NCBI GenBank assembly: GCA_021846685.1
Contig: JAJZWL010000005.1
Location: forward strand, 4,722-68,721
Source of the DNA: a bacterium
Lineage (GTDB): Bacteria; Patescibacteriota; Dojkabacteria; JAKAPS01; JAJZLI01
Reading direction: 5' to 3'
DNA length: 64,000 nucleotides
Shown: one piece after another, positions 1 through 59,134 of the stretch
Layout: the number at the start of each line of letters is the position of its first letter
Numbering within the stretch: position 1 is the first letter of the stretch
Position numbers and translations under genes: made by a program
Notes under the pieces: model-generated
What the model saw: only the letters and a program-made list of their open reading frames with translations
The model's database searches: none
Told to the model about the DNA's origin: nothing

Positions 1-2367
1 TGCAACTGGATCACCTACTTGAGTTCCTAGTTTTGTTACTGATTGAGGGTCTATTGCTTCCACAAAAGCTCCATTAAATTGTGCATGCCCACCAATTCTT
101 GTTGTTGAAAATAATTTATATGCAGCAGAATCCTTTGGTATAATAACTTGCCCATTTTGTTGGACATTAAATACGAAAGCTTTATTCTGAGTAGCTTTAC
201 TAGCCGTAACCCAAACCTGCATCTTTCCTTGCTCGATAAGTGTTTTTGTCGCAATAACTCTAGTATTTGTCATATTTGATATATTAAAAACAACATCTCC
301 TTTTGAATTATATCCTGTGTTAGATCCCCACTGTAAGCCTAATTCATTTCCAGTATCTTTCCCTGGGGCATTATTATTGTTAAACCAATGATTTCTTTGA
401 ACAGGAGTATTTCCGGCTCTTACTGCATTATGTATAGATGTTCCTCCTGAGTTAACATAAGCAGTTGTTTGTTTGGTATATATCCCTTCTTTTTTTAAAT
501 ATTGTATAGCACTCTTTGTAAGAGTTCCATTTTTGTTTAAAGGAACTTCCCGATATTGTTTCTCATTTACTAAAATTTCGGCAAAATGCCCTTTCGGATT
601 AATACGTATAGATGCATCATGCATATAAGTAGTCTTTTTTATTTTTACTTGATTCCATTTATTTAATAGTCCTTCTAGAAAATCTTGTTTTATAACTCCA
701 TGCCTAATTGCCTCTTCATGATTCTCCATAAATTCTCTTGCTACTCCTTGAGCAATACTACCTACTGCAAGCCCTGTAATTAGATTCCAAGCCATTTGTC
801 TTGCTATTCTTCCTGTTTTTATTCCTTTAAATATTGAATCTTTTTGAGCCATATCTTCCTCAATTGACCTAACTGCTTCTCCAGTTTTATCATTGAGTAA
901 TTTTTCCATATTAAGATCTCCATCTTTATTTCCCAATACTTCATTAATATATTCTGTATTATCAGTAGATATTAATTTAGACTGAACATACTTAACATAC
1001 CAATCGAGATCTGTAAATTCTTCTTGCATACTTTCTGGAGAAGAGAATAAAAATAAATCCATGGATCTATCTGCAGAGATTAATCTTCTTGCTCTATATT
1101 CTCCGATTATATTAACCATCCTATTAAAGGATTCTGGGTCAACCTCTTTATCTTTGAATTTATCAAATAATTCTGATAATTCTGATAAAGTATCTTTTAC
1201 AGGCATTAGCTCATATGCAGTTTTTTGTATTTGCTCTCTTCTTTTTCCTTCTATAGTATTTAATCTTCCAGAAGAAACATCTCTCATATGCATTTGCCTA
1301 TCTCTTTTTATTCTTTGTTTTTCTTTTCCTGTAGCAAGTAGAGAACTGGCCACAGCTGCAGCTCCAAAAGAACCTATTGTTGCGGCTTTTGAAGAAATAA
1401 CACTAAAAGCAACTCTTCCAATAACTGAGAAAGCACTAGCTACAACAGTCTCATTTACTAATTTCCCAGCAATCTTGCGATTTTTTATATTTTCCAATAA
1501 TCTATCTGTCTTACTGTATTCAACTCTTGTGACAGATAAATCTTTTGCTATACCTAAATTAATTACTATTAAATTTCTTATCTCTTCTACTGATTTTCCG
1601 TGTTCTATTAATAATTTTATTTGATCTATGTATTTATCTATATTATCTTCAAATTTTTCAAAATTTGCATGAGTGCCTCCTTTTAAGGAAGATGTTTCAA
1701 ATAATTCTGAAATTAATTGTCTTTTCTTATCTAAATATTCATCAGAAGCGATTTCTCCTGAAGATATCTTAAGAATAAGATCTCTAAGATCATTGGCACT
1801 TTTATTTTCTTTAGCAATGACAGTCTTTTCAATATCCTTTTCAGTTTTTATACTACCTGCTTCAAATCTATCTGCTGTTTTCCCGGCTGTAACTTTAAAC
1901 CTTTCTTCTTCTAACGCTTGTTTTTTATATTTTTGATATACAGTTCCTTCAAAGTATCCATATTTCCATATTTTTTTAAAAACTCCTGAAACTCCTTTAA
2001 GTTCATTTTTATTTGCAGTAAGTTTTTCTCTGGCCATATCATGGGCTCTTCTTTTTGTTTGGTCTGAAATATCTACAACATGTATGTTAATAGGATCTTC
2101 GGTGTTTGTTCCTTTATCTTTGTCTATTGAAACTAATGCAGTATTCGTAACAGGATCGATTGGTTCTATTTGCGTGCTATTTGATTTATCTTCTTTAGGA
2201 TTTGATGCATCTTCTGTATCTAAATTAGGATTAATAGCATCAGCTATAATCTCTTCAGCAGCCCTAATTACTTTAGCAGTTTCTGTTACGAATTCTGCCT
2301 CTCTAACTATTGCATCTATTTCTGCTTCAGAGGGAGATATGTTTAAAGTGTCGGGTACTGTACTCAT
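1..2367 (-). CDS. Large hypothetical protein, partial (3' end runs off the left edge of the window). It has an internal hydrophobic segment and a Gly/Asn/Thr-rich C-terminal region.
   Basis: Manual reverse-complement translation is stop-free from the ATG at 2367..2365 down to position 1; I checked the frame at 1-120 and around 2340-2370. The listed plus-strand ORFs 1061..1624, 1673..1936 and 2084..2389 are low-complexity antisense read-throughs of this gene. It is probably absent from the ORF track because it is truncated by the window edge. Confidence 0.55.
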   Translation of the reverse strand, partial: MSTVPDTLNISPSEAEIDAIVREAEFVTETAKVIRAAEEIIADAINPNLDTEDASNPKEDKSNSTQIEPIDPVTNTALVSIDKDKGTNTEDPINIHVVDISDQTKRRAHDMAREKLTANKNELKGVSGVFKKIWKYGYFEGTVYQKYKKQALEEERFKVTAGKTADRFEAGSIKTEKDIEKTVIAKENKSANDLRDLILKISSGEIASDEYLDKKRQLISELFETSSLKGGTHANFEKFEDNIDKYIDQIKLLIEHGKSVEEIRNLIVINLGIAKDLSVTRVEYSKTDRLLENIKNRKIAGKLVNETVVASAFSVIGRVAFSVISSKAATIGSFGAAAVASSLLATGKEKQRIKRDRQMHMRDVSSGRLNTIEGKRREQIQKTAYELMPVKDTLSELSELFDKFKDKEVDPESFNRMVNIIGEYRARRLISADRSMDLFLFSSPESMQEEFTDLDWYVKYVQSKLISTDNTEYINEVLGNKDGDLNMEKLLNDKTGEAVRSIEEDMAQKDSIFKGIKTGRIARQMAWNLITGLAVGSIAQGVAREFMENHEEAIRHGVIKQDFLEGLLNKWNQVKIKKTTYMHDASIRINPKGHFAEILVNEKQYREVPLNKNGTLTKSAIQYLKKEGIYTKQTTAYVNSGGTSIHNAVRAGNTPVQRNHWFNNNNAPGKDTGNELGLQWGSNTGYNSKGDVVFNISNMTNTRVIATKTLIEQGKMQVWVTASKATQNKAFVFNVQQNGQVIIPKDSAAYKLFSTTRIGGHAQFNGAFVEAIDPQSVTKLGTQVGDPVA

Positions 2368-2672
2368 ATGCTATTACTTAAATAAATAGTTCTAAAATTA
2401 ATCAAGACGTCACTTATTATTTGATCGATGTTTGCAATATTTTGAGATATAAATTTAACAAGCTCTTCATCTGTAGCATTTGTTTCAAATAAATTTTCAA
2501 ATTCATCCAATTTATCCTCAGGAAGTCTTTTTATAACTTCAGAATTAATAGCGTCTTCTATAAGATCATATAATTCATCTTTTATTCTCTTTATATATTC
2601 AGGCTTAGAGGTATCAAAACCTTTCTCTGCTATTAACTGATCTATAAAATTCTCTAAATTTGTTGCATTCAT
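2364..2672 (-). CDS. Hypothetical acidic protein, 102 aa.
   Basis: ORF track. Its TGA stop overlaps the ATG of the downstream gene in an ATGA arrangement at 2364-2367, which suggests translational coupling. Confidence 0.5.
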   Translation of the reverse strand: MNATNLENFIDQLIAEKGFDTSKPEYIKRIKDELYDLIEDAINSEVIKRLPEDKLDEFENLFETNATDEELVKFISQNIANIDQIISDVLINFRTIYLSNSI

Positions 2673-2816
2673 ATACTCTTAATACCTAATATAATCCTAT
2701 AATGTTTAATTATAAAATACCTTATAGTTTTTGTCAAATGTACTCTTGGGAAGTAGTTGGTGTCTGTAATAAATTAAATAATCCATATTTCTATGTTTTT
2801 TGATATAATAACATAC

Positions 2817-3899
2817 ATGAAAGGTTTAATAACAGCAGGAGGAAGAGGAACTAGGCTTAGACCTATTACCCATACAAAGAATAAACACCTTATTCCTGTA
2901 GCAGGAAAACCTATTATTGTATATGCAATTGAAACTCTAAAAGAGGCAGGTATTATAGATATAGGGATAACATATAATGCAGACTTAGATACATTACAGT
3001 CTTTTCTTAAGAATGGAGAAGATTTTGGAGTAAATCTTGTGTATATTCATCAAAAAGAACCTATTGGCTTGGCTGATTGTATAAGAGTGTCTAAAGATTT
3101 TTTAAAGGATGATAGCTTTGTCTTTTTTCTAGGAGACAATCTTCTGGCAGGTGGAATATTAAAATATAAAAAAATATTTGAAGAAAAAAAACCTCAAAGT
3201 CTGCTTCTTCTCTCGAAAGTTCAGGATCCACAAAGATTTGGAGTCCCTGAATTTGATAAAGCTGGGAAAATAGTTAAAATAGAAGAAAAACCAGAATCTC
3301 CAAAGTCTGATTTTGCTATAACTGGAATATATTTTTATGACAGTACTATCTTTAAAGCTTTTGAAGGAAAGAACCATATTGTTCCATCTGAAAGGGGAGA
3401 ACTAGAGATATCCGATGTACATCAATATTTAATTGATCACGGATATACTGTTTTAGGAGAGAATATTACAGGTTGGTGGAAAGATACAGGAAAACCAAAT
3501 GATCTTTTATTTGCAAATAGATTGATTTTAGAAAAACATACTGAATATTCTATATCTGAAAGTGCTTTTATAGATGATTTATCTTCAATTTCAGGAAATA
3601 TAAGTGTGGGGGATAATTCTAAAATTATTAACTCTATTATAAGAGGTCCTGTATATATAGGGAACAATACTATTATTGAAAATAGTTATATTGGGCCATT
3701 CACATCAATTGGAAACAATAATAGTCTGGTTCTATCTGAGATAGAACATTCACTTCTATTAGATAATATAAGCATATTTAACATTCAACAAAGGATAGAT
3801 GAAAGTATAATAGGGGATAACGTTATTATCTCAAAAAAAGAATCTAAACCTGCAGTATATAATCTTTATTTAGGGGATCATTCCATAATAAAAATCTAG
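2817..3899 (+). CDS. Sugar-1-phosphate nucleotidyltransferase, RmlA/GlmU-like, with a C-terminal left-handed beta-helix (hexapeptide repeat) domain.
   Basis: N-terminal G-x-G-T-R-L signature in LITAGGRGTRLRPIT. C-terminal I/V/L-G-x-x-x-x hexapeptide repeats (ISVGDNSKIINSIIRGPVYIGNNTIIENSYIGPF). The track start at 2793 adds 8 residues; the ATG at 2817 (MKGLITAGG) is more plausible. Confidence 0.8.
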   Translation: MKGLITAGGRGTRLRPITHTKNKHLIPVAGKPIIVYAIETLKEAGIIDIGITYNADLDTLQSFLKNGEDFGVNLVYIHQKEPIGLADCIRVSKDFLKDDSFVFFLGDNLLAGGILKYKKIFEEKKPQSLLLLSKVQDPQRFGVPEFDKAGKIVKIEEKPESPKSDFAITGIYFYDSTIFKAFEGKNHIVPSERGELEISDVHQYLIDHGYTVLGENITGWWKDTGKPNDLLFANRLILEKHTEYSISESAFIDDLSSISGNISVGDNSKIINSIIRGPVYIGNNTIIENSYIGPFTSIGNNNSLVLSEIEHSLLLDNISIFNIQQRIDESIIGDNVIISKKESKPAVYNLYLGDHSIIKI

Positions 3900-3958
3900 T
3901 TATTTTTATAAATATTATTGATGCAATCCCAGAGCTATATTGCAATCGCTAAATTAAG

Positions 3959-4005
3959 TCAAATTCTTCGGGTTGACCCGACAAATTAGATCAAATTCTT
4001 CGGGT
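3959..4005 (+). repeat. Two copies of a 15-bp direct repeat (tcaaattcttcgggt), with nearby short palindromes, between convergent genes.
   Basis: Direct repeats at 3959-3973 and 3991-4005. Nearby are TGCAAT..ATTGCA (3922-3946) and CGGGT-TG-ACCCG palindromes. Confidence 0.5.
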
Positions 4006-4027
4006 GGGATATTTTGTAAATCAGTTT

Positions 4028-4549
4028 TTAGCTACATGCAGCTATCGAAGTTGCTGTTATTTGAGATTGAGGAGAATTAAAACAATATGAATTCGTTAGT
4101 GCCCATTTATTATTTATATTTTTAAGATCATATTCTGTTGCATTTGTACCATTTGAATTAGTGACTTTTATTATTGAAATAGTAGGCAATTCTGTAATTA
4201 TAGAATATACAGGATTTATAAATGTTCCTTTTATTCTAGTTATTGGATTTAAAACTCCTTTGTTCTTAATATATTTTTCTGCTGTCTTTCTAAAACTAGA
4301 AGATAGAGGACATACTGAATTGGATATACATGTGTTGTAATTAGTTATTATGTATTTCATTACTGTAAGGGGAGACTGATTAGGAAAACTTACATTTTTA
4401 GGTATTTTAATCTGAGCATGTGTTTTAGATGATACAGCATTATTATGCGTCACAGTATTTTTATATTGATTATCTTTATATAAGAATACAAAAAGCAAAA
4501 CTATGATTACTACAAGTAATATTATTATTATATCTTTTTTGTCTTTCAT
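4028..4549 (-). CDS. Membrane-anchored hypothetical protein with an N-terminal TM helix.
   Basis: ORF track. The N-terminus IIIILLVVIIVLLFVFLY is hydrophobic. It lies 3 bp downstream of the S8 peptidase gene on the same strand. Confidence 0.45.
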   Translation of the reverse strand: MKDKKDIIIILLVVIIVLLFVFLYKDNQYKNTVTHNNAVSSKTHAQIKIPKNVSFPNQSPLTVMKYIITNYNTCISNSVCPLSSSFRKTAEKYIKNKGVLNPITRIKGTFINPVYSIITELPTISIIKVTNSNGTNATEYDLKNINNKWALTNSYCFNSPQSQITATSIAACS

Positions 4550-4551
4550 TA

Positions 4552-6687
4552 TTAATTCCCTGTTATTGATTGGGCTGAAGTTCCAAAAATACTTCCTTGA
4601 TATTGAGCATTTCCAAATGTATAAACTGCTCCATCTTGCTCTAGTATATAATACCCCGAATTATTAGAAGTAAGCAATAGTGATTTTGGCACATTAGAAG
4701 GTACTGAGCTTTTAGGAATGTTATACATAGATCCAGAAAACTGAGCATTCCCAAATGTATATACAGCTCCGTCTGCTGTAAGTAAATAATAACCTTGATT
4801 ATTCGGAGTTATTTGAAAGTCCACAGCTGTTTTTACAGGAGCGTTTGGAATATTATATACTGATCCAAAAAACTGAGCATTACCAAATGTATAAATAGCT
4901 CCATTTTGAGTTACTATGTAATAACCTCCTCCATTTGTTGTTATTGCAAGAGCTACAGGGGTTCTATTTGGAATCGCAGAAGAAGGAATGTTGTATAACG
5001 ATCCTGAAAATTTAGCATCTCCAAATGTATATATACCCCCGTCTGCAGTTAAAATATAATAACCTTTGTTATCAGGAGTAAGTACCATAGCTATGGCAGT
5101 TTTGACTGGGGGATTAGGGATATTATACATAGATCCAAAAAACTGAGCATTCCCAAATGTATATACAGATCCTGAAGAAGTTAAAATGTAATACCCTTGG
5201 TTGTTTGCAGTGTTTACTATATCTGTAACATGTCCATAATTTTGATTTATGGTATTTACTCCTCCGTAATTATTAAAATTACCCTCTGTAAACACTGTTC
5301 CATTTGAAGAGAGAATATTATATGCTTGTGCAGTTTGATTAAATGTAGTTGTTGAAAGGGCTTCAGAAGGAGATATATTTAACATGCTATTTATATTCAA
5401 TAATCCATATCCAAAATCTGTTGCACTTCCTATATTTGTGGAACTTTTCTCTAAAGCTTTATTTATGACATTTAAAGATTGTACTCCATACTTTGAATCA
5501 TATAGAGCTATGGCAGCAGTTACTTGTGGTGCCGAAAAAGATGTCCCTGCTGCATATTGATTAGAGATACTAGTGAAACTAGATACCGTTCCAGACCCAA
5601 ATCCTGTATAACTTTGTTGGTACACTAAAGGATTATTGTAGCCAACTGGAGCTACTAATGTTTGACAATTATTGTCAGAACTACATCCGTAATTTGAATA
5701 TGTAGTAAGGCTGTTTGTTGAATTTGTAGCCCCCACTGCTATAACTCCAGGATATCCTGCAGGATAGTCTAGGGTGGAAGTCCCATTATTACCAGATGAG
5801 GCTACTACTGCAATTCCATCAGAAATAGCTTGTTCAATTAGATTTTGCTCTTGTGAACTTGGAGTAGAACCTCCTATACTGAGATTAATAACATTAGCTC
5901 CATTGTTAATAGCCCATTGTATTCCCAAAAGTTCTGCTCCAAGAGGGATGCCATTAGAATTACCTATTTTAATAGGCATAATGCTTGTGTTAAATGCAAT
6001 TCCTGCAACTCCATATTTTTGAGATCCACTAGAGTCATTATTAGTACTAGAATTTATAACACTTGTAACAAAAGTTCCATGTCCCATACTGTCATAAGGA
6101 GAATATTCATTTACTGTCTGGTTATTATATACAGCCAGAGCATTATATGGATCTACTATATTAAGGTTAGATAATGCAGGAGCTTGAGCGTAAGTAGTTC
6201 CTGTCAAAGAATTTGTATAACTTTGATATTCTACTCCAGAATCTAGTACAGCTACTTTTATATTACTACTTCCTCCTAAAGATGCTGTAAATCCAGAATT
6301 ATCAACAACAGGAGCTTTAATATCAAATAGATTTTTTTGTAAATTTATATCTGTGTTATTAGGTAGAGAAGAGAAGTGCCTTACATAGTCAGGAGATACA
6401 TTCTTAACACTACTATTAGCAAGCAACTTTGTCATAAATATTTTATAAGTTTCTCCTTTAGGTTTTTTTACTATCTTTATATTATTGTTAACACTTACTA
6501 TATTAGAATTACCTAAATTAGAATTAGTTGTATCAACTATGGCAGAATTGGTAGAGTAACTTTTATTATAAGTAAGAGAGTTATATTCGGAATTTATATT
6601 ATTAGTTTTTATGACAGATGCATATATCTTGCCTACAGAGACTATAGATATTAGTAATATTATATTGAATAATAAGAATTTCTTCAT
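4552..6687 (-). CDS. Secreted subtilisin-like serine peptidase (S8) with six C-terminal ~42-aa repeats.
   Basis: N-terminal signal peptide. Catalytic triad motifs are present: D in VAVLDSGVEY, H in HGTFVTS, S in GTSFSAPQV. The C-terminal third is six tandem repeats of the form N-x-GYYILT-x-DG-x-VYTFG-x-AQF-x-GS-x-YNIP. Confidence 0.85.
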   Translation of the reverse strand: MKKFLLFNIILLISIVSVGKIYASVIKTNNINSEYNSLTYNKSYSTNSAIVDTTNSNLGNSNIVSVNNNIKIVKKPKGETYKIFMTKLLANSSVKNVSPDYVRHFSSLPNNTDINLQKNLFDIKAPVVDNSGFTASLGGSSNIKVAVLDSGVEYQSYTNSLTGTTYAQAPALSNLNIVDPYNALAVYNNQTVNEYSPYDSMGHGTFVTSVINSSTNNDSSGSQKYGVAGIAFNTSIMPIKIGNSNGIPLGAELLGIQWAINNGANVINLSIGGSTPSSQEQNLIEQAISDGIAVVASSGNNGTSTLDYPAGYPGVIAVGATNSTNSLTTYSNYGCSSDNNCQTLVAPVGYNNPLVYQQSYTGFGSGTVSSFTSISNQYAAGTSFSAPQVTAAIALYDSKYGVQSLNVINKALEKSSTNIGSATDFGYGLLNINSMLNISPSEALSTTTFNQTAQAYNILSSNGTVFTEGNFNNYGGVNTINQNYGHVTDIVNTANNQGYYILTSSGSVYTFGNAQFFGSMYNIPNPPVKTAIAMVLTPDNKGYYILTADGGIYTFGDAKFSGSLYNIPSSAIPNRTPVALAITTNGGGYYIVTQNGAIYTFGNAQFFGSVYNIPNAPVKTAVDFQITPNNQGYYLLTADGAVYTFGNAQFSGSMYNIPKSSVPSNVPKSLLLTSNNSGYYILEQDGAVYTFGNAQYQGSIFGTSAQSITGN

Positions 6688-6700
6688 AATGAAGTCTCGC

Positions 6701-8809
6701 TTAAGGAGCTAATGTTGCTCCTATGGTTTTATTAAATATTCCAATTGCAGTTCCATCATATACTGCATTTCCAAATGTATATATTCCTCCATCTGCTGTA
6801 GTAAGATAATAACCTTGGTTATTTGCTGTGACAGCGAAAGATACGGGTCTTGTATTTGGAGCTCCTTTTATATTATACATAGATCCGAAAAATTGAGCAT
6901 CTCCAAAAGTGTAAACTGCACCATCTTGAGTTGTTATATAATATCCATTTCCACTAGGGGTTAATGTGAAATTAACTGCATTTTTATTAGGAGCTGCAGG
7001 AATATTATATACTGATCCATGGAATTGAGCATTTCCAAATGTATAAACTGCACCATTTGCTGTCATTATGTAGTATCCTCCACCATTAGGAGTTACAGCA
7101 AATGCTAAAGGAGTTCTGTTTGGCATTGCAGAAGAAGGGATGTTATATAGTGATCCATGAAATTGAGCAGATCCAAATGTGTAAACACCTCCATCTGCCG
7201 TAAGTACATAGTACCCATTTCCATGTGGAGTAGTAGCAATTGCTACAGGAGTTCTTACTGGAGCATTCGGTATGTTATATACACTCCCGAAAAATTTAGC
7301 AGTACCAAATGTATATATCCCACTATCTTGAGTTAGTATGTAATAACCTGTATCACTTGGAAGTACTGCAAGCCCTACTGCATTATTATTTGGAGCACCA
7401 TTCATATATGACATATCTCCATAATAATTAGCATTTCCTAATGGTAATATTTTTCCATGAGAAGAAAGAATATAGTATGCACTATTATTTTTTGAAAAAA
7501 GAGAACTGCTAGTAAAATAACTATTTATAGCACTTGTAAGATTAGTTGATGGTTGTTCATATCCTAATGTCCAAATACTTACTCCTCTCAAATTTGAATT
7601 AAGTACTTGTGAATATACTAAACCTAAAGATGTAGCATTAGAATAATATCCCTCTCTTAATTGATCTCCAGATGCACAATTTGGAGGAGTATTATTTGAA
7701 GTGTAACAATATCCATACCATGGAGTTGAGCTCTGAGAATCCCAATGCTTTGTGTTTTGGTTCTTATATTTATCATTTGTTTGTCCATAAGGCTCATTTA
7801 TTCCAGTTCCTGAAACAGTAGGTGCATTTTGATTATCATTTGTAGTTTGATAATCGTTTCCATAGTAAGGAACTCCTAATATAATTTTATTAGGATTAAT
7901 TGCTGCTGCATAATCAAGGATAGTTCTTCTAACGTCATACCATAAAGGTCCTGCTCCATTATTATATCCAGTAAAAGGATTTACTGGCTCTGCTATTGAG
8001 GAAGAAGGAGTATAGTAATCATAAGCCATAACGTTTATAGCATCTGCTGCATTAGCAAGTGCTGGGGCATTATATAAAGATCCAGGCCAACGTACGGCTG
8101 ACGCCATAACATCTACTGATATGAAAGATCCTGGTATTGCTTGGTGCATTTGAGTAGTAAGATTGGATACAAGAGTTGTAAAATTATTAATAGTTGTGGT
8201 ATCTGGGGTTCCTTGAGAAGGTTGGTATTCAAAATCAATATTTACTCCTTGTAGGTTATATTTTTTTGTAATCGAAATTATATTATTAATAAAGTTTTGT
8301 GTATTTGTAGTACTATTTACAACACTTTGAATATCTGTCAAATTAAATATTTTAGCTGTAATAACAACTCTTACATTATTATTGTGAGCAGTATTTACCA
8401 TATTTACAAAAGCTGAGGATTGCAATCCTGTATATCCATTTCCACCTCCTGCATTTGTTCCAAAATTACCATTTCCATCTGATGTAATCCCAAAATAGTC
8501 AATAGTAGTTAAATTTTTATATGGATAATTTAAATATGCATTTGAAGTAAGATCCCAATATGGAGCAAACCCCATTACCTCTTTTTGTAATCCTTGAGGA
8601 CCATAACTTGCAAATGTCTTGTATGGATTAGGTTTAGTTGTTGCTTTTACAAAGGAGTAAGTTTTATTTGAATGTAAAGCGTTTAAATAACTATTTCCTT
8701 CATATGACCAAGATGGCGGTGTACTTGCTGCAAATATTTTTCCTGCTGTTAAAAAAAATATTACAAATAAAACAGGCAGAAGTATCTTAGTATTAATTTT
8801 TATAGTCAT
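6701..8809 (-). CDS. Secreted GH18-like glycoside hydrolase (chitinase or peptidoglycan hydrolase type) carrying the same six C-terminal repeats.
   Basis: Signal peptide. GH18-type motifs are present: VMGFAPYWD, LTTIDYFGI, the catalytic-like LQGVNIDFEY (the DxDxE region) and AINVMAYDY. The C-terminus has six copies of the GYY-x-LT-x-DGG-x-YTFG-x-AQF-x-GS-x-YNIP repeat shared with the adjacent S8 peptidase. Confidence 0.75.
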   Translation of the reverse strand: MTIKINTKILLPVLFVIFFLTAGKIFAASTPPSWSYEGNSYLNALHSNKTYSFVKATTKPNPYKTFASYGPQGLQKEVMGFAPYWDLTSNAYLNYPYKNLTTIDYFGITSDGNGNFGTNAGGGNGYTGLQSSAFVNMVNTAHNNNVRVVITAKIFNLTDIQSVVNSTTNTQNFINNIISITKKYNLQGVNIDFEYQPSQGTPDTTTINNFTTLVSNLTTQMHQAIPGSFISVDVMASAVRWPGSLYNAPALANAADAINVMAYDYYTPSSSIAEPVNPFTGYNNGAGPLWYDVRRTILDYAAAINPNKIILGVPYYGNDYQTTNDNQNAPTVSGTGINEPYGQTNDKYKNQNTKHWDSQSSTPWYGYCYTSNNTPPNCASGDQLREGYYSNATSLGLVYSQVLNSNLRGVSIWTLGYEQPSTNLTSAINSYFTSSSLFSKNNSAYYILSSHGKILPLGNANYYGDMSYMNGAPNNNAVGLAVLPSDTGYYILTQDSGIYTFGTAKFFGSVYNIPNAPVRTPVAIATTPHGNGYYVLTADGGVYTFGSAQFHGSLYNIPSSAMPNRTPLAFAVTPNGGGYYIMTANGAVYTFGNAQFHGSVYNIPAAPNKNAVNFTLTPSGNGYYITTQDGAVYTFGDAQFFGSMYNIKGAPNTRPVSFAVTANNQGYYLTTADGGIYTFGNAVYDGTAIGIFNKTIGATLAP

Positions 8810-9287
8810 AAGAGTATTTAATATATAAATTTCTTACTTACAATCTAACACAATATATATATACACACAATAGGGTAGGAAAGTTTCATATTATTTTTCT
8901 TAAGGGAATTTTTTACAAGCTTTTCAAAGTAATTTTTAATCTCTCTATGGTTTTAGAAATAAGATTCCATAATGTTGTATACTTATCTCATTATATAGAT
9001 TTATTTGTATAACTCGAATATCCAAACTTAAATAAAGATAGATATGTTAATTATAATAATATACTCTTGAATTACTATATTATAATTTCACTATAGACAT
9101 AAAAATAAGAAATTTTTCTTCCTTTTTTTTGTTGTATATATTGCATATGAATTCTTCTACATATAAATAATCGCTTTTTTCTTTTTTATAAAAAATCGAT
9201 CTTGTAAAGAATTGACTTATTCTTTTTCTGTTATTGAATTTATCTCAAAATCGAATGTATATTGAGTGACTATATTTTGCTTTATCT

Positions 9288-37743: not shown

Positions 37744-38469
37744 ATGGCTAAACTACTATTTGCAGGTTCTGGAGAGTTTACTGATTCTATGAATGACATA
37801 GATAGCTATCTCTGTTCTAGTATAAATTTAACTAAAATTATGATTATCCCAACTGCGGCAGGTAAGGAAAAAGATTTTCATAAATGGATAGATAATGGTA
37901 TTTCTCATTTTAAAAAAATTGGAAAGGAGGCTTTCGGGGGGGATTTAATATCAAGAGAGGATTATTTTAAAGATGAATATATTGCTCTTCTTGATAAAAC
38001 TAATTTTATATATTTTTCAGGTGGAGATCCTGAATATTTATTATCTTGTATTGAAAACACTCCATTTTTAGAAAAACTTTTGAGTAAATTAAAAGAGAAA
38101 GATTTTATTCTAGCAGGATCCTCAGCAGGAGCTATGATTATGGGAAGTTATACTCCTGTTAATATTTTAAATAGAATATTCTCTTCGAATAAAAAGGGGG
38201 TCTTTATTAGAGAGGCATTAGATCTAGGTCATTTTATAGTGATTCCTCACTTTAATAAAATTCCTAAAATATTAGAATTAAAATATATAAGTGAAAGAAT
38301 AATAAATAGTTTACCCGATATAACTATTGTGGGAATAGATGAAGATACCGCTATATTAACTGAAAATAATACAGAATTTAAAGTGTTAGGAAAAGGGAGT
38401 GTCTATATTATTAATGGTAATGCAAAGATAATTTCATATAAAAATTATGAAATATTTAATATAAAATGA
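37744..38469 (+). CDS. Peptidase S51 family (dipeptidase E / cyanophycinase-like).
   Basis: IYFSGGDPEYLL and ILAGSSAGAMIMG correspond to the conserved GGN..LL and nucleophile-Ser (G-x-S-A-G-A) regions of PepE-type enzymes. Confidence 0.65.
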   Translation: MAKLLFAGSGEFTDSMNDIDSYLCSSINLTKIMIIPTAAGKEKDFHKWIDNGISHFKKIGKEAFGGDLISREDYFKDEYIALLDKTNFIYFSGGDPEYLLSCIENTPFLEKLLSKLKEKDFILAGSSAGAMIMGSYTPVNILNRIFSSNKKGVFIREALDLGHFIVIPHFNKIPKILELKYISERIINSLPDITIVGIDEDTAILTENNTEFKVLGKGSVYIINGNAKIISYKNYEIFNIK

Positions 38470-40463
38470 AAAAATATTTTTACATAAATCAATTCTTAAT
38501 TATTCTTCTGTATATATATCTTTTTATATTTCCATACAGTTATATCCCTTTTTTTATTATTTTACTATTGATATTAATTACATTTTTATATACCGATGGT
38601 AAAATTTTAAAAAAAATTATTAATTTATTTTTTAAATATACAGAGAGTATAAGGCGAACTTTTTTTGCTACTTTTATTCCAATTTTACTTTTTATTGCAT
38701 ATTCTTTCCATAATTTGCTATTGTTATTCTATTTGATATCTATTTTGATACTATTATTTTACTTATTTTTGTTTATAAAGTCATTATTTATTCTAAAAAA
38801 GATAAATTTAAAGTTATCGGCAACTAATTTGCCTCAGGAAAAAAATTTAGAAAGTATATTCTCTAAATTACCCCTCAATATATTATATGTATGTAGTAAA
38901 AAAGAGGTATTTCAAGAGATTCAAGTTAGTCATACTTTAAAAGATAATATAGTAGATATTGTACATATTAATTATCCAGATATAATGATTACTGAAGTTG
39001 AAAATACATCTAAAAAGAAATATAAAAAATATTTATTTATAGACTCATCTTTTGATTATTATGATAATATTATGCAGATTTTAAAGGATAATAAAGATAT
39101 TTCATTTAAATTTATTTTCAGAAATCCTTATAGATTTATGAATTTATCTTTAGTTTTATTAAAAATAGAATCCAATGATAAAAATCTTTTAAAAAGAATA
39201 AATACGTTATTTTCTGATAATCTACAAAAAGATCTAATATTTGATAATAAAAAATTATCAAAGGTATTTCATCCAATTGTCGACTCAGGGAATATAATTG
39301 ATGTAGTTGAATCAAGTTCCGAAATAAATGTACCCTTAAAAATATTAGATTCTAATAAAGGTGTATTAATGGGAATTAATCGTGGTAATAGAATTTATAT
39401 TTCACCTAAACATTTTTTATCACACAGTTATTTAATAGGAAAAACAGGGTCGGGTAAAAGTGTTTTTATGAGTAATATTATTATTCAAAATATAAAGAAA
39501 ATGAATCCATGTATTGTAATTGATCCTCATAATATTGCGGATATAATTTTGTCAAAATTGAATAAAAAAGATTTGAAGAATGTAGTTTTGGTCGATTTTT
39601 CTGATCTTAAATATTCTATTAATCCATTAGATTTAAGTAGTAGTAAAAATCCTTATCTTTTGATAGATAATACCGTATCTATATTTAAAGATCTTTATTC
39701 TGAATTTTGGGGTCCTCAAAGTGATGATATTTTAAGAAGAAGCCTGTCGGCGCTAATTTTTTCAGAAGAAGATTATTCTATTCTAGATTTAGAAGAATTT
39801 CTTACAGATGATCATTTTAGATTAAAAGTTCTTTTTTCTGTACATGATAGAGATACTTTAGATTATTTTGATAATATTTTTTCTAAATGGGATAATAGAT
39901 CTAGGTCAGAGAGAATCTCTCCTATTTTGAATAAAATAGGAAGACTAAAGTCTGATAAGTTTATATCACAATTTGTCTCTGGAAATAAAGATCTGCTAGA
40001 TTTAAAAACTCTTGTAAAAGAGGGCAAAAGTGTCATTTTTTCTGTATCAAAGAAGTTTGTAGGAGAAGAGAACTCTAAATTTTTAGGATCTCTTGTTATA
40101 AATCAAATTAGGAATGTTATTCTTCAAGAAGATATTAGCAGGCATATATACTTATATATAGACGAATTCCAGAATTTTATATCAGATAACTTCTTGTTTA
40201 TCTTTTCAGAATCAAGAAAATATAACTTATCAATATTTATAGCAAATCAATATATAGACCAAATAGATCAAAAGTACCTTTCTAGTATAATAGAGAATTG
40301 TTCTAATTTTTATGTAATGGATATAGGAGAAAATTCGAAGAAATATTTATCTCAAGTTCTAAAATTTGAGATACCTTCGAAAATATCTGAACATATTATT
40401 TATGCTAAAAATGGCAATAACCCTATCTATACAATTTATTCTTATGTTAAAAAGCATGGTTGA
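38466..40463 (+). CDS. Membrane-anchored FtsK/HerA/VirD4-superfamily P-loop ATPase, resembling a type IV coupling protein.
   Basis: An N-terminal block of about 120 aa with 3-4 TM helices. Walker A LIGKTGSGKS. Walker B IYLYIDEFQNF. About 665 aa, with TraG/VirD4-like architecture. Confidence 0.5.
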   Translation: MKKYFYINQFLIILLYIYLFIFPYSYIPFFIILLLILITFLYTDGKILKKIINLFFKYTESIRRTFFATFIPILLFIAYSFHNLLLLFYLISILILLFYLFLFIKSLFILKKINLKLSATNLPQEKNLESIFSKLPLNILYVCSKKEVFQEIQVSHTLKDNIVDIVHINYPDIMITEVENTSKKKYKKYLFIDSSFDYYDNIMQILKDNKDISFKFIFRNPYRFMNLSLVLLKIESNDKNLLKRINTLFSDNLQKDLIFDNKKLSKVFHPIVDSGNIIDVVESSSEINVPLKILDSNKGVLMGINRGNRIYISPKHFLSHSYLIGKTGSGKSVFMSNIIIQNIKKMNPCIVIDPHNIADIILSKLNKKDLKNVVLVDFSDLKYSINPLDLSSSKNPYLLIDNTVSIFKDLYSEFWGPQSDDILRRSLSALIFSEEDYSILDLEEFLTDDHFRLKVLFSVHDRDTLDYFDNIFSKWDNRSRSERISPILNKIGRLKSDKFISQFVSGNKDLLDLKTLVKEGKSVIFSVSKKFVGEENSKFLGSLVINQIRNVILQEDISRHIYLYIDEFQNFISDNFLFIFSESRKYNLSIFIANQYIDQIDQKYLSSIIENCSNFYVMDIGENSKKYLSQVLKFEIPSKISEHIIYAKNGNNPIYTIYSYVKKHG

Positions 40464-50510: not shown

Positions 50511-53225
50511 ATGGAGTTAAACGAGATTCAAAAACAAGCAGTATCAAATATATCTTCTCCTGTAATAGTTAAGGCAGGACCAGGAACCGGTAAAACTTTT
50601 TTGATTATAGAAAAGATCAAATATCTTATTTCTAAAGGTTTTATTGAAAATAATATTCTTGCAGTTACATTTTCTAAGAAAGCATCAGAAGAGATAAAAA
50701 ATAGACTTTCAGATACTCTTGGTCTTTTTAGTGAAGTTAATATAGAAACTTTTCACTCATTAGCTGAAAAGATATTAAGAGAGAACTATCAATATTTTAA
50801 TCTTAAAAAAGACTTTATAGTAATGGATAGAATGGAGAGTTTTGTTTTTTTATCAAATCGTATATTTGATTTTGATATTAATCTTTTACGTCCTCTTTCA
50901 AATCCAGATAAGGAAATAGATAAAATTTTAGAATTTTTCTCAAAACTTGAAGATGAATATATATCTCCACAAGAATTTATAGATTTTAAAAATAAGGATG
51001 AATATTCAACAGAATTAGCTTATTTATATAAAGAATTTTTTACATTAAAAATAAAAGAATCTAAATTAGAATTTAATGATCTTATATATCTTTCTTTAAA
51101 ACTGTTTGAAGACAAAAAAATACTTAAAAAATATCAAGATAAATTTAAATATCTCCTTGTAGATGAGTTTCAAGATACAAATTATATACAAAATCAATTT
51201 ATATTAAAATTAGCATCAAATATCACAGTAGTAGGGGATAAGAATCAGTCTATATACAAATTTAGAGGAGCATCTTTGTCAAACTTTAGTTCTTTTTCTA
51301 AAGCTTTTCCTAAAAATGTGGAATATGTATTAAGTGAAAATTACAGATCATATCAGAATATAGTGGATACAGCTTATTTGTTTATGGGGGAAGAATATAC
51401 CTTAAAATCTATTAAGGGGTTAAACAAAGATTCTATCAAAGTACTTAATTTCACTAAAAATATAGAAGAAATTAATTATATAAAGGATCAGATTTTAAAA
51501 CTACATGATGATGGTATAAATTTTTCTGATATTGCTATCCTTTTAAGATCAAATTCATACATCAATGACTTTGCTGAAGTTCTTATAGATTCTAATATCC
51601 CTATTTATTTAAGAGGATCTAGTACTTTTGAGATTTCTTCTGAATTTAAAGATTTGGCATCTGTTGTGTATTTTTCTGAAAATCCAAATGATAATATATC
51701 TTTTTTAAGAATACTTAATATGGAGTGTTTTAGTTTTTCTCAAGAAGAATTTATAGGTTTATCTGAATTTTTAAATACGAAATTTAGAACGAATTCATAT
51801 TATGAGGGATTATCTAAAATTATTGAGGGTAAAGGGGAGAATCTTGAACTAAGAACAGAGAAGATATTAAATTTTTATGCTATTTTGAAAAATCTGACAA
51901 ATCCAGAAGTGGATCTAATTGATAAATTAAATGATTTTTTAGATAAAAGTTTTTATTTTGAATTTTTACATAAAAAGAATGATTCACTGGTAAGACGTTC
52001 TAATTTAGATAAATTTATTGCAATTATAGAAAGACTTTCAGAAAATGGAGTTGAGTTTTTTTCAAAATATATAAGGAATATAAATAAGATCTCATCAATG
52101 GATGATAGTTTAGATCAAGATATAAATTTTGATAGTGTTACTATCTCTACTGTACATTCAGTAAAAGGTATGGAGTTTAAGTATGTATTTATGCCTTATT
52201 TAGTTAAAGATAGATTTCCTTTGAAAAATAGAGGAGGAAATATAGATATCCCTTCTTCGCTATTACATGAGTCTATTCCAGAAGAAGAACAATTCATCGA
52301 GGAAGAAAAAAGATTGTTTTTTGTGGCTTTAACACGCGCAAAAGATATGGTATATTTATCTTTTTCTAATATTTATGATGGAAATAAAAAAACAAAAGAT
52401 AAAAGTATATTTTTAGATATTATTAAAAATAAAATAGAAAAAGTAGAATCAAAAAGTGATATTAAAGTGAATAATATTCCATATTTTCTAATCCCTGATA
52501 ATTCTATTCCAAAAAAATATTCATATTCACAGTTAAATTTATTTAAAACATGTCCTTTACAGTACTATTATGAATATATTCTAAGGATAAAAAAACAACC
52601 TAAATTAGTATTTGAATATGGTAATGTTATACATGATACTTTGAAGCAATATTTTCAACGAGATAGGCAAGCCCAAAATATTGATCTTTTAGAGAATATT
52701 TATAAAATGCGATGGGAGAGAGCGAATCTTTCTGTATTTAGAAATGAAGGGCATATAGAAAGTTATAAGAAGAAAGGATTAGAGTCAATTAAGAATAATA
52801 TAGACCTTATAAAACCAATAGGTCTAAAAAATCTTTATGAGCTAAATGTAGATGTATCTTTAGATGGAAAATATCTTATTAATGGAAGACTAGATAGATT
52901 AGATTTTTTAGAAGATGGAGGTTTGTCAATTGTTGATTATAAAACAGGAAGTTCTACTAGTCAGGACACCAGTTCTTCAAATCTACAATTAGGGTTATAT
53001 TCTATATTAGTAAAAGAAAAATTCCCAAATGATATAAAGAATTTAAAACTTCTTTTTATAGATGAAGGAAAAGAGATAAATATAGATTATCAAAAGATTA
53101 ATATAGAAAAAGTAAAAGAGGAGATAATAGATTTAATAGAAAAGATAAGAGATTTAGAGGTAAAAGCCACACCTTCTTTTGCTTGTAATTACTGTGAATA
53201 TAGAAGTTTATGTTATAAAATGTAA
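50511..53225 (+). CDS. UvrD/PcrA-like superfamily 1 helicase fused to a C-terminal PD-(D/E)xK nuclease with a Cas4/AddB-like Cys cluster.
   Basis: N-terminal AGPGTGKT (Walker A) and VDEFQDTN (motif II). The C-terminus has CPLQYYYEY, RLDRLDF...IVDYKTG (D..D/ExK) and CNYCEYRSLC, consistent with an iron-sulfur RecB-family nuclease domain. Confidence 0.8.
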   Translation: MELNEIQKQAVSNISSPVIVKAGPGTGKTFLIIEKIKYLISKGFIENNILAVTFSKKASEEIKNRLSDTLGLFSEVNIETFHSLAEKILRENYQYFNLKKDFIVMDRMESFVFLSNRIFDFDINLLRPLSNPDKEIDKILEFFSKLEDEYISPQEFIDFKNKDEYSTELAYLYKEFFTLKIKESKLEFNDLIYLSLKLFEDKKILKKYQDKFKYLLVDEFQDTNYIQNQFILKLASNITVVGDKNQSIYKFRGASLSNFSSFSKAFPKNVEYVLSENYRSYQNIVDTAYLFMGEEYTLKSIKGLNKDSIKVLNFTKNIEEINYIKDQILKLHDDGINFSDIAILLRSNSYINDFAEVLIDSNIPIYLRGSSTFEISSEFKDLASVVYFSENPNDNISFLRILNMECFSFSQEEFIGLSEFLNTKFRTNSYYEGLSKIIEGKGENLELRTEKILNFYAILKNLTNPEVDLIDKLNDFLDKSFYFEFLHKKNDSLVRRSNLDKFIAIIERLSENGVEFFSKYIRNINKISSMDDSLDQDINFDSVTISTVHSVKGMEFKYVFMPYLVKDRFPLKNRGGNIDIPSSLLHESIPEEEQFIEEEKRLFFVALTRAKDMVYLSFSNIYDGNKKTKDKSIFLDIIKNKIEKVESKSDIKVNNIPYFLIPDNSIPKKYSYSQLNLFKTCPLQYYYEYILRIKKQPKLVFEYGNVIHDTLKQYFQRDRQAQNIDLLENIYKMRWERANLSVFRNEGHIESYKKKGLESIKNNIDLIKPIGLKNLYELNVDVSLDGKYLINGRLDRLDFLEDGGLSIVDYKTGSSTSQDTSSSNLQLGLYSILVKEKFPNDIKNLKLLFIDEGKEINIDYQKINIEKVKEEIIDLIEKIRDLEVKATPSFACNYCEYRSLCYKM

Positions 53226-58003: not shown

Positions 58004-59134
58004 ATGGATGATATTACTTTTATACATACCGCAGATATACACTTAGGGAGGAAATTTAATTATCTAAAAGATAAGGCTGGGGATGCTAGAGAGCATCTTT
58101 TTGAGGTATTGAAAAAAATATCTGATCTTGCTATAGAGAAAAAAGTAAAATTTATAATAATTGCAGGAGATCTTTTTGATTCTACAAATCCTGATTTATA
58201 TTCTGTTGGGAAGTTTTTAAATTTTGTATCTGTTTTGGCTGGTCAAAAAATTAGAGTAGTGGTTCTCCCTGGAACTCATGACTATTTATCTGAAAATGGA
58301 ATATATTCTAATAAGAATCTTTTTAATGCATATAAAAATTTATTTATCTTTAATGATCCTATTATTCGTAGTGTTACTTTCGAAGATTTATCTGTAACTT
58401 TATATGCATATCCTCCTGTAGCCAATAAGATGGATAAATCACCTATATCTGGATTTAATATGGATGATGATGTCTCTTTGTATAGAATTATAATAGCTCA
58501 TGGGTCGGTTCAAATCCCAGGGAAATCAGACCCTAAAGATAGTCCAATTACTTTTGAAGAGATTGAAAGCTCAAAAGCCTCATATATAGCATTAGGACAT
58601 TGGCATCAAAATTTAGATTTTACAAGAAAAGTGCCTTGTTTTTATAGTGGTTCTCCTGAATTAATTGATATTGATCAGAGTGAATCGGGATTTGTTATGT
58701 ATGGTGACCTTAGTAAAGGTATATATGAGAGTATAAAGGTTGGAGATAGATATTTTGATGAATTAAGTATTCCTCTTTCAAATATACATACTCCAGAACA
58801 GTTAGTGGAAAAAATTATATCAAATGCTAATTTAAACCTTATTAGAAAAGTTGTCTTAATAGGAAAGAAGCCTAAAGAAATTGTTGGTATTAATTTTGAT
58901 ATTTTAAAAAAAGAGCTTTCTGCTAATTTTTATTTTTTAATAATTGAAGATAAGTCTGAATTCAGTATTGATAAATCAATAGATTATGAGTTATTGTCTC
59001 CTATTGAAAAAAGTTATATATCTAATTTAAAAGATTTAATAGAGAAAACTCAAGATAATAAAGAGAAAGAGATGTATACTGAGGCATTAGAAATTGGATA
59101 TGCATTATTAAATGGGAGAAATGATATATTATGA
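58004..59134 (+). CDS. sbcD: SbcD/Mre11-family DNA repair exonuclease (calcineurin-like phosphoesterase).
   Basis: Metallophosphoesterase motifs are present: FIHTADIHLG, IIAGDLFD, LPGTHD, GHWH. Confidence 0.8.
   Translation: MDDITFIHTADIHLGRKFNYLKDKAGDAREHLFEVLKKISDLAIEKKVKFIIIAGDLFDSTNPDLYSVGKFLNFVSVLAGQKIRVVVLPGTHDYLSENGIYSNKNLFNAYKNLFIFNDPIIRSVTFEDLSVTLYAYPPVANKMDKSPISGFNMDDDVSLYRIIIAHGSVQIPGKSDPKDSPITFEEIESSKASYIALGHWHQNLDFTRKVPCFYSGSPELIDIDQSESGFVMYGDLSKGIYESIKVGDRYFDELSIPLSNIHTPEQLVEKIISNANLNLIRKVVLIGKKPKEIVGINFDILKKELSANFYFLIIEDKSEFSIDKSIDYELLSPIEKSYISNLKDLIEKTQDNKEKEMYTEALEIGYALLNGRNDIL

Follow-up and report, generated by a model that had tools for sequence, protein, structure and literature searches.

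A 64,000-nucleotide stretch from a genome of the Dojkabacteria (Patescibacteriota; contig JAJZWL010000005.1 of assembly GCA_021846685.1), hereafter the window, encodes on its minus strand two adjacent open reading frames (ORFs): a glycoside hydrolase of family 18 (GH18, 702 amino acids [aa]), followed by a subtilisin-like S8 protease (711 aa), as the original prediction made from the DNA alone had stated. Both enzymes end in a module of six tandem repeats. Judging from structure models, this module is best described as a compact six-bladed variant of beta-propeller that lies within the RCC1/BLIP-II superfamily and belongs to neither of the two named families. It is ubiquitous, yet uncharacterised and uncurated. 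We slightly favour the view that it acts as a targeting or anchoring module that would retain the two enzymes on the cell envelope. The propeller superfamily itself was known; what is new is a compact variant of it with six blades, similar to RCC1 and BLIP-II and used as an extracellular accessory module. As regards the window alone the outcome is modest, i.e., ordinary domain shuffling and an old accessory domain that evolves independently on two enzymes.

Repeats and predicted fold

A motif scan placed the starts of the repeats at aa 455, 498, 542, 588, 632, and 678 of the S8 protein and at aa 444, 488, 532, 578, 622, and 666 of the GH18 protein. This bears out the six C-terminal tandem repeats previously described on both enzymes, whose consensus was also correct. 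The repeat length given there, about 42 aa, is the mode for the family as a whole (see below), and the period in both window proteins is 43–46 aa. The first repeat is degenerate in each protein (22–45% identity to any other repeat). The repetition is barely visible in the DNA, where Tandem Repeats Finder reported a single 138-nt pair (76% identity), and a six-frame motif scan found no further copy of the repeat in the 64 kb of the window. When the module alone was used as a query, it retrieved relatives at E values down to 1e-123, so the similarity is not due to chance.

We modelled each module with AlphaFold2 using an alignment of 75 sequences. The two models are confident (predicted local distance difference test and predicted template modelling [TM] score of 89.5 and 0.89 for S8, and of 89.3 and 0.87 for GH18) and have the same architecture: 18 strands arranged in six triplets, with loops of about 18 residues between the triplets. 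Each repeat thus has three strands as assigned by DSSP, and a short irregular fourth one is possible. A search of the S8 model with Foldseek in PDB and BFVD returned only beta-propellers, of the WD40 or RCC1-like types, with probability 1.00. The best TM-scores did not exceed 0.63, at 8–19% sequence identity, which means that there is no close solved or viral relative; the RCC1-like domain of HERC2 ranked third. The original prediction had proposed a six-bladed propeller and suggested structure prediction and a fold search of the C-terminal modules as a check; both returned a compact propeller, and six is also the standard unit of the family.

By sequence, the nearest known relatives are RCC1-like domains, and the relationship is distant. 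With phmmer, a single module matches the RCC1-like domain of RPGR (E 1.8e-6). The Pfam model RCC1_2 scores 33.7 bits on the whole S8 protein and 20.1 bits on the GH18 protein, for a cut-off of 22, and no single repeat passes it; WD40_RLD scores 28–33 bits, for a cut-off of 150. The family profile matched nothing among the PDB sequences at E<=0.01. At E<=10 it gave marginal matches to HERC2 and HERC1 (E 0.017–0.04) and a comparable, chance-level match to the C-terminal domain of GyrA. The latter raised the possibility of a beta-pinwheel, a fold that we consider unlikely, GyrA and ParC domains being absent from the top fold hits.

The number of repeats is informative about the closure of the ring. 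We counted repeats with a hidden Markov model (HMM) in 320 proteins of the family and found six in 209 of the 380 arrays and five in 61. The five-repeat arrays are usually explained by a degenerate first blade, as in the window proteins. Larger arrays have 12 repeats (four cases) or 18 (one case), and the modal period is 42 aa. That six is the standard unit, and that larger arrays have 12 or 18 repeats, supports a closed ring of six blades as the probable arrangement.

The window repeats share with the RCC1-like domains (RCC1, RPGR, HERC1, and HERC2; PF00415 and PF13540) both the organisation as a tandem-repeat propeller and a strand-turn signature made of a hydrophobic strand, x-D/N-G-x, and V-Y/F-x-F/W-G. 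They differ in having six blades of 42–46 aa with three DSSP strands, whereas RCC1-like domains have seven blades of about 51–68 aa with four strands. They also differ in their setting, since the window modules are extracellular and fused to hydrolases, whereas RCC1-like domains are intracellular regulators of GTPases or ubiquitin ligases. Propellers of the RCC1/BLIP-II lineage form a recognised and mostly bacterial group (PMC9218822), in which BLIP-II of Streptomyces exfoliatus has seven blades with only three antiparallel strands each (PMC6121496). BLIP-II is thus similar to both window models in being a secreted bacterial propeller with three-stranded blades. It differs from them in the number of blades and in being a stand-alone protein of 28 kDa that binds class A beta-lactamase, whereas the window modules consist of six repeats carried by enzymes. 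BLIP-II was found neither among the PDB sequence matches at E<=10 nor among the top 50 Foldseek hits.

A large and uncurated family

We searched 1.84 billion cluster representatives with HMMER and found 15,775 members of the family at E<=1e-3, 10,765 at E<=1e-10, and 3,004 at E<=1e-30. The check on other carriers advised in the original prediction therefore shows that they are very numerous, even if the window has no further copy. The consensus of the family is GYWLVAsDGGVFxFGDAxFxGSxGGxxLNxPIVGmAxTPxGxGYW, and its strongly conserved positions are mostly glycines and core aromatics. A scan of species-representative genomes identified at least 600 loci, of which we used the best 80 to study the taxonomy and the placement of the module. 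Acidimicrobiales and other Actinomycetota, which often have several loci in a genome, account for nearly all of these 80; one locus is from a Thermoplasmata and one from a Chloroflexia metagenome-assembled genome. Identity to the window's module is 32–41% throughout. Of the 251 members retrieved, 9 have an amino acid composition of the AT-rich type, among them the orthologues of both window proteins, two fusions with a Kelch propeller (P0106 and P0001), and a protein with an N-terminal module (P0108).

We found no Pfam or NCBIfam model and no solved structure for the repeat family. RCC1_2 or WD40_RLD reached an E value of 1e-5 in just 5 of the 76 top hits, and eight actinobacterial members had no NCBIfam match on the repeat. 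Literature searches with the motif string, with PF13540, and for propeller-type wall-binding domains retrieved no description of the family, and neither RCC1 nor propeller domains are mentioned in a review from 2019 on the hydrolases of the cell wall and the modules by which they bind (PMC6403190). The Pfam models of known cell-wall-binding domains (LysM, SH3b, PG_binding, SLH, CW_binding, ChW, and SPOR) had no match to either window protein at E<=1. The concern that the repeat might turn out to be a ubiquitous and already known cell-wall-binding repeat was thus half right, as to its ubiquity but not as to its being known for wall binding. Some members (e.g., P0017, P0023, P0026, and P0051) have spurious matches to Ribosomal_L24e (PF01246) on the repeat, and the Joint Genome Institute names some proteins of the family "ribosomal protein L24E", in what looks like a systematic mis-annotation.

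The two modules are old and evolve independently

The original prediction described the repeats as very similar, within and between the two genes, and attributed this to domain shuffling or gene conversion between neighbours. The similarity was overstated: identity among repeats 2–5 of a gene is 52–68%, and between the two whole modules it is 58% in protein and 72% in DNA. The modules are collinear, and most repeats have their best match at the same position of the other module (S1–G1 45%, S3–G3 78%, S4–G4 70%, and S5–G5 61%), which implies a single copying of the whole block of six repeats, as opposed to a separate amplification of repeats within each gene. This copy is old, since third codon positions are 49% identical between the modules and the longest exact DNA word that they have in common spans 28 nt.

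Orthologues of both proteins were located in two other genomes by exact look-up of the closest homologues: genome A (GCA_027459825.1) and genome B (GCA_027425055.1 and a contig from the European Nucleotide Archive). We built a neighbour-joining tree of the six modules from the three genomes, rooted with a family member of the GC-rich type (P0114), and made 200 bootstraps. The S8 modules of the three genomes form a clade in 198 of the 200 replicates and the GH18 modules in 177, and in none of them do the two modules of a same genome pair together. Since the modules cluster by gene, both fusions are older than the split of these lineages and have been stably inherited. The lack of same-genome pairs leads us to reject gene conversion or any other form of concerted evolution. 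The sequences indicate that the two modules are the result of one old duplication or transfer of the whole module, followed by independent evolution.

A recent duplication, or an ongoing gene conversion between the two genes, would account for their adjacency on the same strand and for the repeat-by-repeat collinearity of the modules. Its probability is nevertheless negligible given the divergence in protein, in DNA, and at third positions, the shortness of the common words, and the topology of the tree. The comparison of the two DNA repeat regions, proposed at the outset as a way to detect conversion tracts, gave the same answer. The other half of the initial explanation, domain shuffling, holds well, because the module is a mobile accessory domain present on many different secreted enzymes. 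The S8 module of genome A is more diverged (51–52% identity to the other two S8 modules); in this orthologue (L127 8410..10503) five repeats match the motif, with irregular periods of 44, 47, 42, and 42 aa.

The enzymes

Sec-type signal peptides, read by eye from the translations, are present at both N-termini and end in GKIYA/S or GKIFA/AS. That of GH18 has a basic N-terminus, a hydrophobic core, and an A-x-A-like end. Both enzymes are therefore predicted to be secreted. The S8 triad is intact, its VAVLDSG, GHGT, and GTSFS motifs aligning with D32, H64, and S221 of the subtilisin-type structure 1mee (E 3e-26). In the GH18 domain the motif QGVNIDFE, compared with the canonical DxxDxDxE, keeps the catalytic D-x-E and has Gln and Asn instead of the two upstream Asp. 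The predicted GH18 enzyme is probably active, on a substrate that may be chitin, peptidoglycan, or the organism's own glycan, and from the presence of the triad and of the D-x-E we expect both enzymes to be catalytically competent. The coordinates of these features are in Table 1.

Among solved structures, the GH18 domain is closest to true chitinases, i.e., insect ChtIV (6jm7, E 2e-15) and chitotriosidase. One could then regard the propeller as a carbohydrate-binding module for chitin or oligomers of N-acetylglucosamine (GlcNAc), and the pair as scavengers of environmental chitin and protein, from fungal or arthropod debris, with no relation to a bacterial envelope. Such debris is commonly degraded by a chitinase and a protease together, and propeller lectins that bind GlcNAc exist. 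We find this explanation unlikely. GH18 is a rare partner of the module (1 of 76 top hits, namely the orthologue of the window's GH18), far commoner partners are the wall amidases and peptidases, to which chitin binding would be of no use, and the pair is encoded in a locus for the synthesis and export of polysaccharides, not in one for the uptake of sugars.

Fusion partners and the putative role of the propeller

The partners of the module are very diverse, with 60 Pfam families among the 76 top hits. In the best 80 of the at least 600 genome loci, the module is C-terminal in about 50 and N-terminal, just after the signal peptide, in about 28. Of the 42 hits whose partner is annotated, 18 carry, by hand count, domains that act on the wall (M23, VanY, YkuD, PG_binding_1, Amidase_2, CHAP, or Glucosaminidase), and PG_binding_1 and the propeller co-occur on YkuD proteins. 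Among 67 actinobacterial ORFs we found NlpC/P60 (5), SpoIID (4), Amidase_3 (3), CHAP (2), and Beta-lactamase2 (2). Other partners include proteases (S8, trypsin, A4, and kumamolisin), glycosidases (GH16, GH18, and GH43), CAP, lipase, and Ig-like domains. The module was also found in one of 50,697 phage records: the protein QBQ74878.1 of phage MK557849.1 (1,304 aa; L126 992..4906) is encoded directly after a minor tail protein, has a weak match to a PHROG "tail protein" family, and carries two sets of six propeller repeats, at about aa 455–700 and 985–1240.

From this pattern of partners, in which wall-acting domains stand out, and from the copies in the tail region of the phage, we infer a portable module that binds an envelope polymer. 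The role in surface or substrate binding suggested initially is thus still the best one can propose from the partners, even if the closest analogues of the module bind proteins. The known modules LysM, SH3b, PG_binding_1, SLH, CWB, ChW, and SPOR are used in the same way, as noncatalytic and often repetitive domains that are N- or C-terminal on secreted amidases, peptidases, glycosidases, and transpeptidases. The fold and sequence of the propeller are unrelated to theirs, and wall binding is in its case a prediction. We also considered a C-terminal sorting signal and rejected it: the module has about 260 aa and is found at the N-terminus and in tandem as well.

Under the reading that we slightly favour, each enzyme would be a Sec-secreted hydrolase followed by a noncatalytic C-terminal domain of six repeats, folding as a closed six-bladed propeller of the RCC1/BLIP-II type, with compact blades of 44–46 aa and three regular strands each. 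The family behaves as a portable module, which many secreted proteins with nothing else in common carry N- or C-terminally. The domain would bind multivalently, with up to one site per blade, and thereby hold the enzyme on a repetitive polymer of the envelope, peptidoglycan or a wall-associated glycan, which could be on the surface of the producer itself or on that of a neighbouring or host cell. Propeller lectins (tachylectin-like, or fungal and bacterial multivalent ones) offer a possible mode of action, in which one sugar site per blade would allow multivalent binding to repetitive glycans; the window modules show no sequence or specific structural match to them. Pereira and Lupas grouped the tachylectin-like propellers apart from the RCC1/BLIP-II ones (PMC9218822).

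Several observations weigh against a module specialised in envelope binding. Numerous fusion partners lack any link with the wall (lipase, phosphoesterase, Kelch, PQQ, Ig-like, and CAP). The association with wall enzymes is descriptive, and wall hydrolases are anyway common in the secretomes of Actinobacteria. A single carrier in the phage records is unusually few for a general wall-binding domain. The depositor's label of QBQ74878.1, "glycoside hydrolase family 25", is matched by no Pfam hit at all, and we have not used this protein as evidence for an endolysin. Finally, the best-characterised structural analogue, BLIP-II, binds a protein and not a glycan (PMC6121496).

Alternatively, the propeller could have no ligand and be an inert spacer, or a domain that favours the folding or solubility of secreted enzymes. 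The most strongly conserved positions, glycines and core aromatics, do look structural. We regard this as improbable, because a domain of this size has long been kept on unrelated enzymes, at either end, and is doubled in the phage tail-region protein.

A broader and more doubtful hypothesis is that the GYW/DGG repeat of 42–46 aa defines an unrecognised major class of envelope-binding domains: a six-bladed propeller with three strands per blade that tethers secreted hydrolases to the wall in Actinomycetota, in at least one of their phages, and in a small clade of Patescibacteria. The latter could have acquired it from GC-rich (actinobacterial) donors and might use it to fix a protease and a glycosidase onto the envelope of a host or onto their own. 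If the propeller does bind the wall, it would be a new and very abundant addition to the short list of bacterial wall-targeting modules, which matter for the annotation of thousands of "hypothetical" secreted proteins of Actinobacteria, for the engineering of lysins, and for host recognition by phages. Patescibacteria typically depend on host cells. In their case, envelope binding would point to a conserved pair of surface-tethered enzymes in a glycan locus, by which these bacteria with reduced genomes might remodel their own envelope or attack that of a host.

A conserved pair in a surface-polysaccharide locus

The order GH18-then-S8 is common to the three genomes. The S8 protein of the window is 76% identical to that of genome B and 57% to that of genome A, and the GH18 protein 85% and 62%, respectively. 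The window and genome B have the same full order: a divergently transcribed glycosyltransferase gene of family 2 (GT2), a secreted protein of 440–451 aa, GH18, S8, and a protein of 173–176 aa. The genes around the pair include GT2 and GT1 glycosyltransferases in each of the three genomes. Genes for a Wzm/Wzt exporter are near the pair in genomes A and B, sugar-nucleotide epimerase genes in genome A, and a nucleotidyl-transferase gene in the window. This gene content fits enzymes that would act on, or be retained by, a surface glycan, either their own or that of a host. The original prediction proposed that the protease and the glycosidase have a coordinated function, and the conservation of the pairing in three genomes fits with it. 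A metagenome scan with the full S8 protein returned only generic subtilases (<=38% identity), with no synteny.

Table 1. Coordinates in the window of the enzyme pair, of its domains, and of two neighbouring genes.
Feature	Positions	Strand	Evidence
GH18 hydrolase gene with C-terminal propeller module, 702 aa, first of the pair	6701..8809	-	ORF; Glyco_hydro_18 E 2e-32
GH18 signal peptide, aa 1-27, MTIKINTKILLPVLFVIFFLTAGKIFA (putative)	8729..8809	-	Read from translation, inferred
GH18 catalytic TIM-barrel domain, aa 123-417, active-site motif LQGVNIDFEY	7559..8443	-	Pfam
GH18 propeller module, aa 433-702, six repeats	6704..7513	-	Motif repeat map; AlphaFold2 model ma12c808924a0
S8 (subtilisin-like) protease gene with C-terminal propeller module, 711 aa	4552..6687	-	ORF; Peptidase_S8 E 2e-36
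S8 signal peptide, aa 1-23, MKKFLLFNIILLISIVSVGKIYA (putative)	6619..6687	-	Read from translation, inferred
S8 catalytic domain, aa 141-428, Asp/His/Ser triad VAVLDSG, GHGT, GTSFS	5404..6267	-	Pfam; 1mee alignment
S8 propeller module, aa 444-711, six repeats	4555..5358	-	Motif repeat map; AlphaFold2 model m8137ea5d8009
173-aa protein gene, N-terminal membrane anchor	4028..4549	-	ORF
Secreted 451-aa protein gene, 478 nt upstream of the GH18 gene	9288..10643	-	ORF

The secreted 451-aa protein encoded upstream of the pair had no match in Pfam, NCBIfam, PHROGs, or PDB sequences. Its signal peptide ends in GK-x-FA, like those of both enzymes. Its homologue in genome B is at the same position and 93% identical, and that in genome A is elsewhere in the locus and 64% identical, so that it is more conserved than the enzymes in both comparisons (76–85% and 57–62%). 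Its possible roles are those of a surface protein or of a functional partner of the two enzymes. Such a neighbour brings up the hypothesis that the propeller binds a protein, docking the enzymes onto an S-layer or another surface protein, possibly this one, or regulating or inhibiting an enzyme. The closest analogues of the module (the RCC1-like domains of RPGR and HERC2, and BLIP-II, PMC6121496) all bind proteins, and beta-lactamase-like domains are among its fusion partners. We give this hypothesis a low probability. A ubiquitous polymer as the ligand accounts more easily for a huge and promiscuous family whose members occur in distant phyla and in one protein of a phage tail region, six near-equivalent blades suggest the multivalent binding of something repetitive, and in genome A the genes of the 451-aa protein and of the pair are not next to each other.

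Downstream, the S8 gene starts 13 nt after the stop codon of GH18, and the gene of the 173-aa protein starts 2 nt after that of S8. These short junctions suggest a single transcript, and the three genes are probably co-transcribed. A scan for promoters and terminators was uninformative in this AT-rich DNA (38 promoter-like sites, for 43 expected by chance). The 173-aa protein has no significant match in Pfam or NCBIfam, and a homologue with 62% identity occupies the corresponding position in L128 and L129. For the S8 protease it may act as a cognate partner, an anchor, or an inhibitor.

The GC content varies between 22% and 33% across the window. It is 30–33% over positions 1..10000, which include both genes, and 22–29% over most of the window. 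The raised GC near the pair may merely reflect the Gly/Ala-rich repeats, and horizontal acquisition is a possibility given that the family is mainly actinobacterial. The GroEL encoded in the window shows 74% identity to that of a "Patescibacteria group bacterium" and 62% to that of Candidatus Dojkabacteria. The window also encodes MurJ and SpoIID, which suggests that the organism makes peptidoglycan.

Other genes of the window are further from this subject. A UvrD/PcrA-type helicase of 904 aa (50511..53225, plus strand) has a C-terminal Cas4-like nuclease domain (TIGR00372, E 1.5e-16) and is AddA-like; it is followed by SbcD- and SbcC/Rad50-like genes (58004..61191). On the same strand as the helicase we found a weak homologue of a TraD-like coupling protein (38466..40463, E 6.5e-12) and a PIN-domain protein (13150..13575), which may be remnants of mobile elements or of toxin–antitoxin systems in the glycan-rich region.

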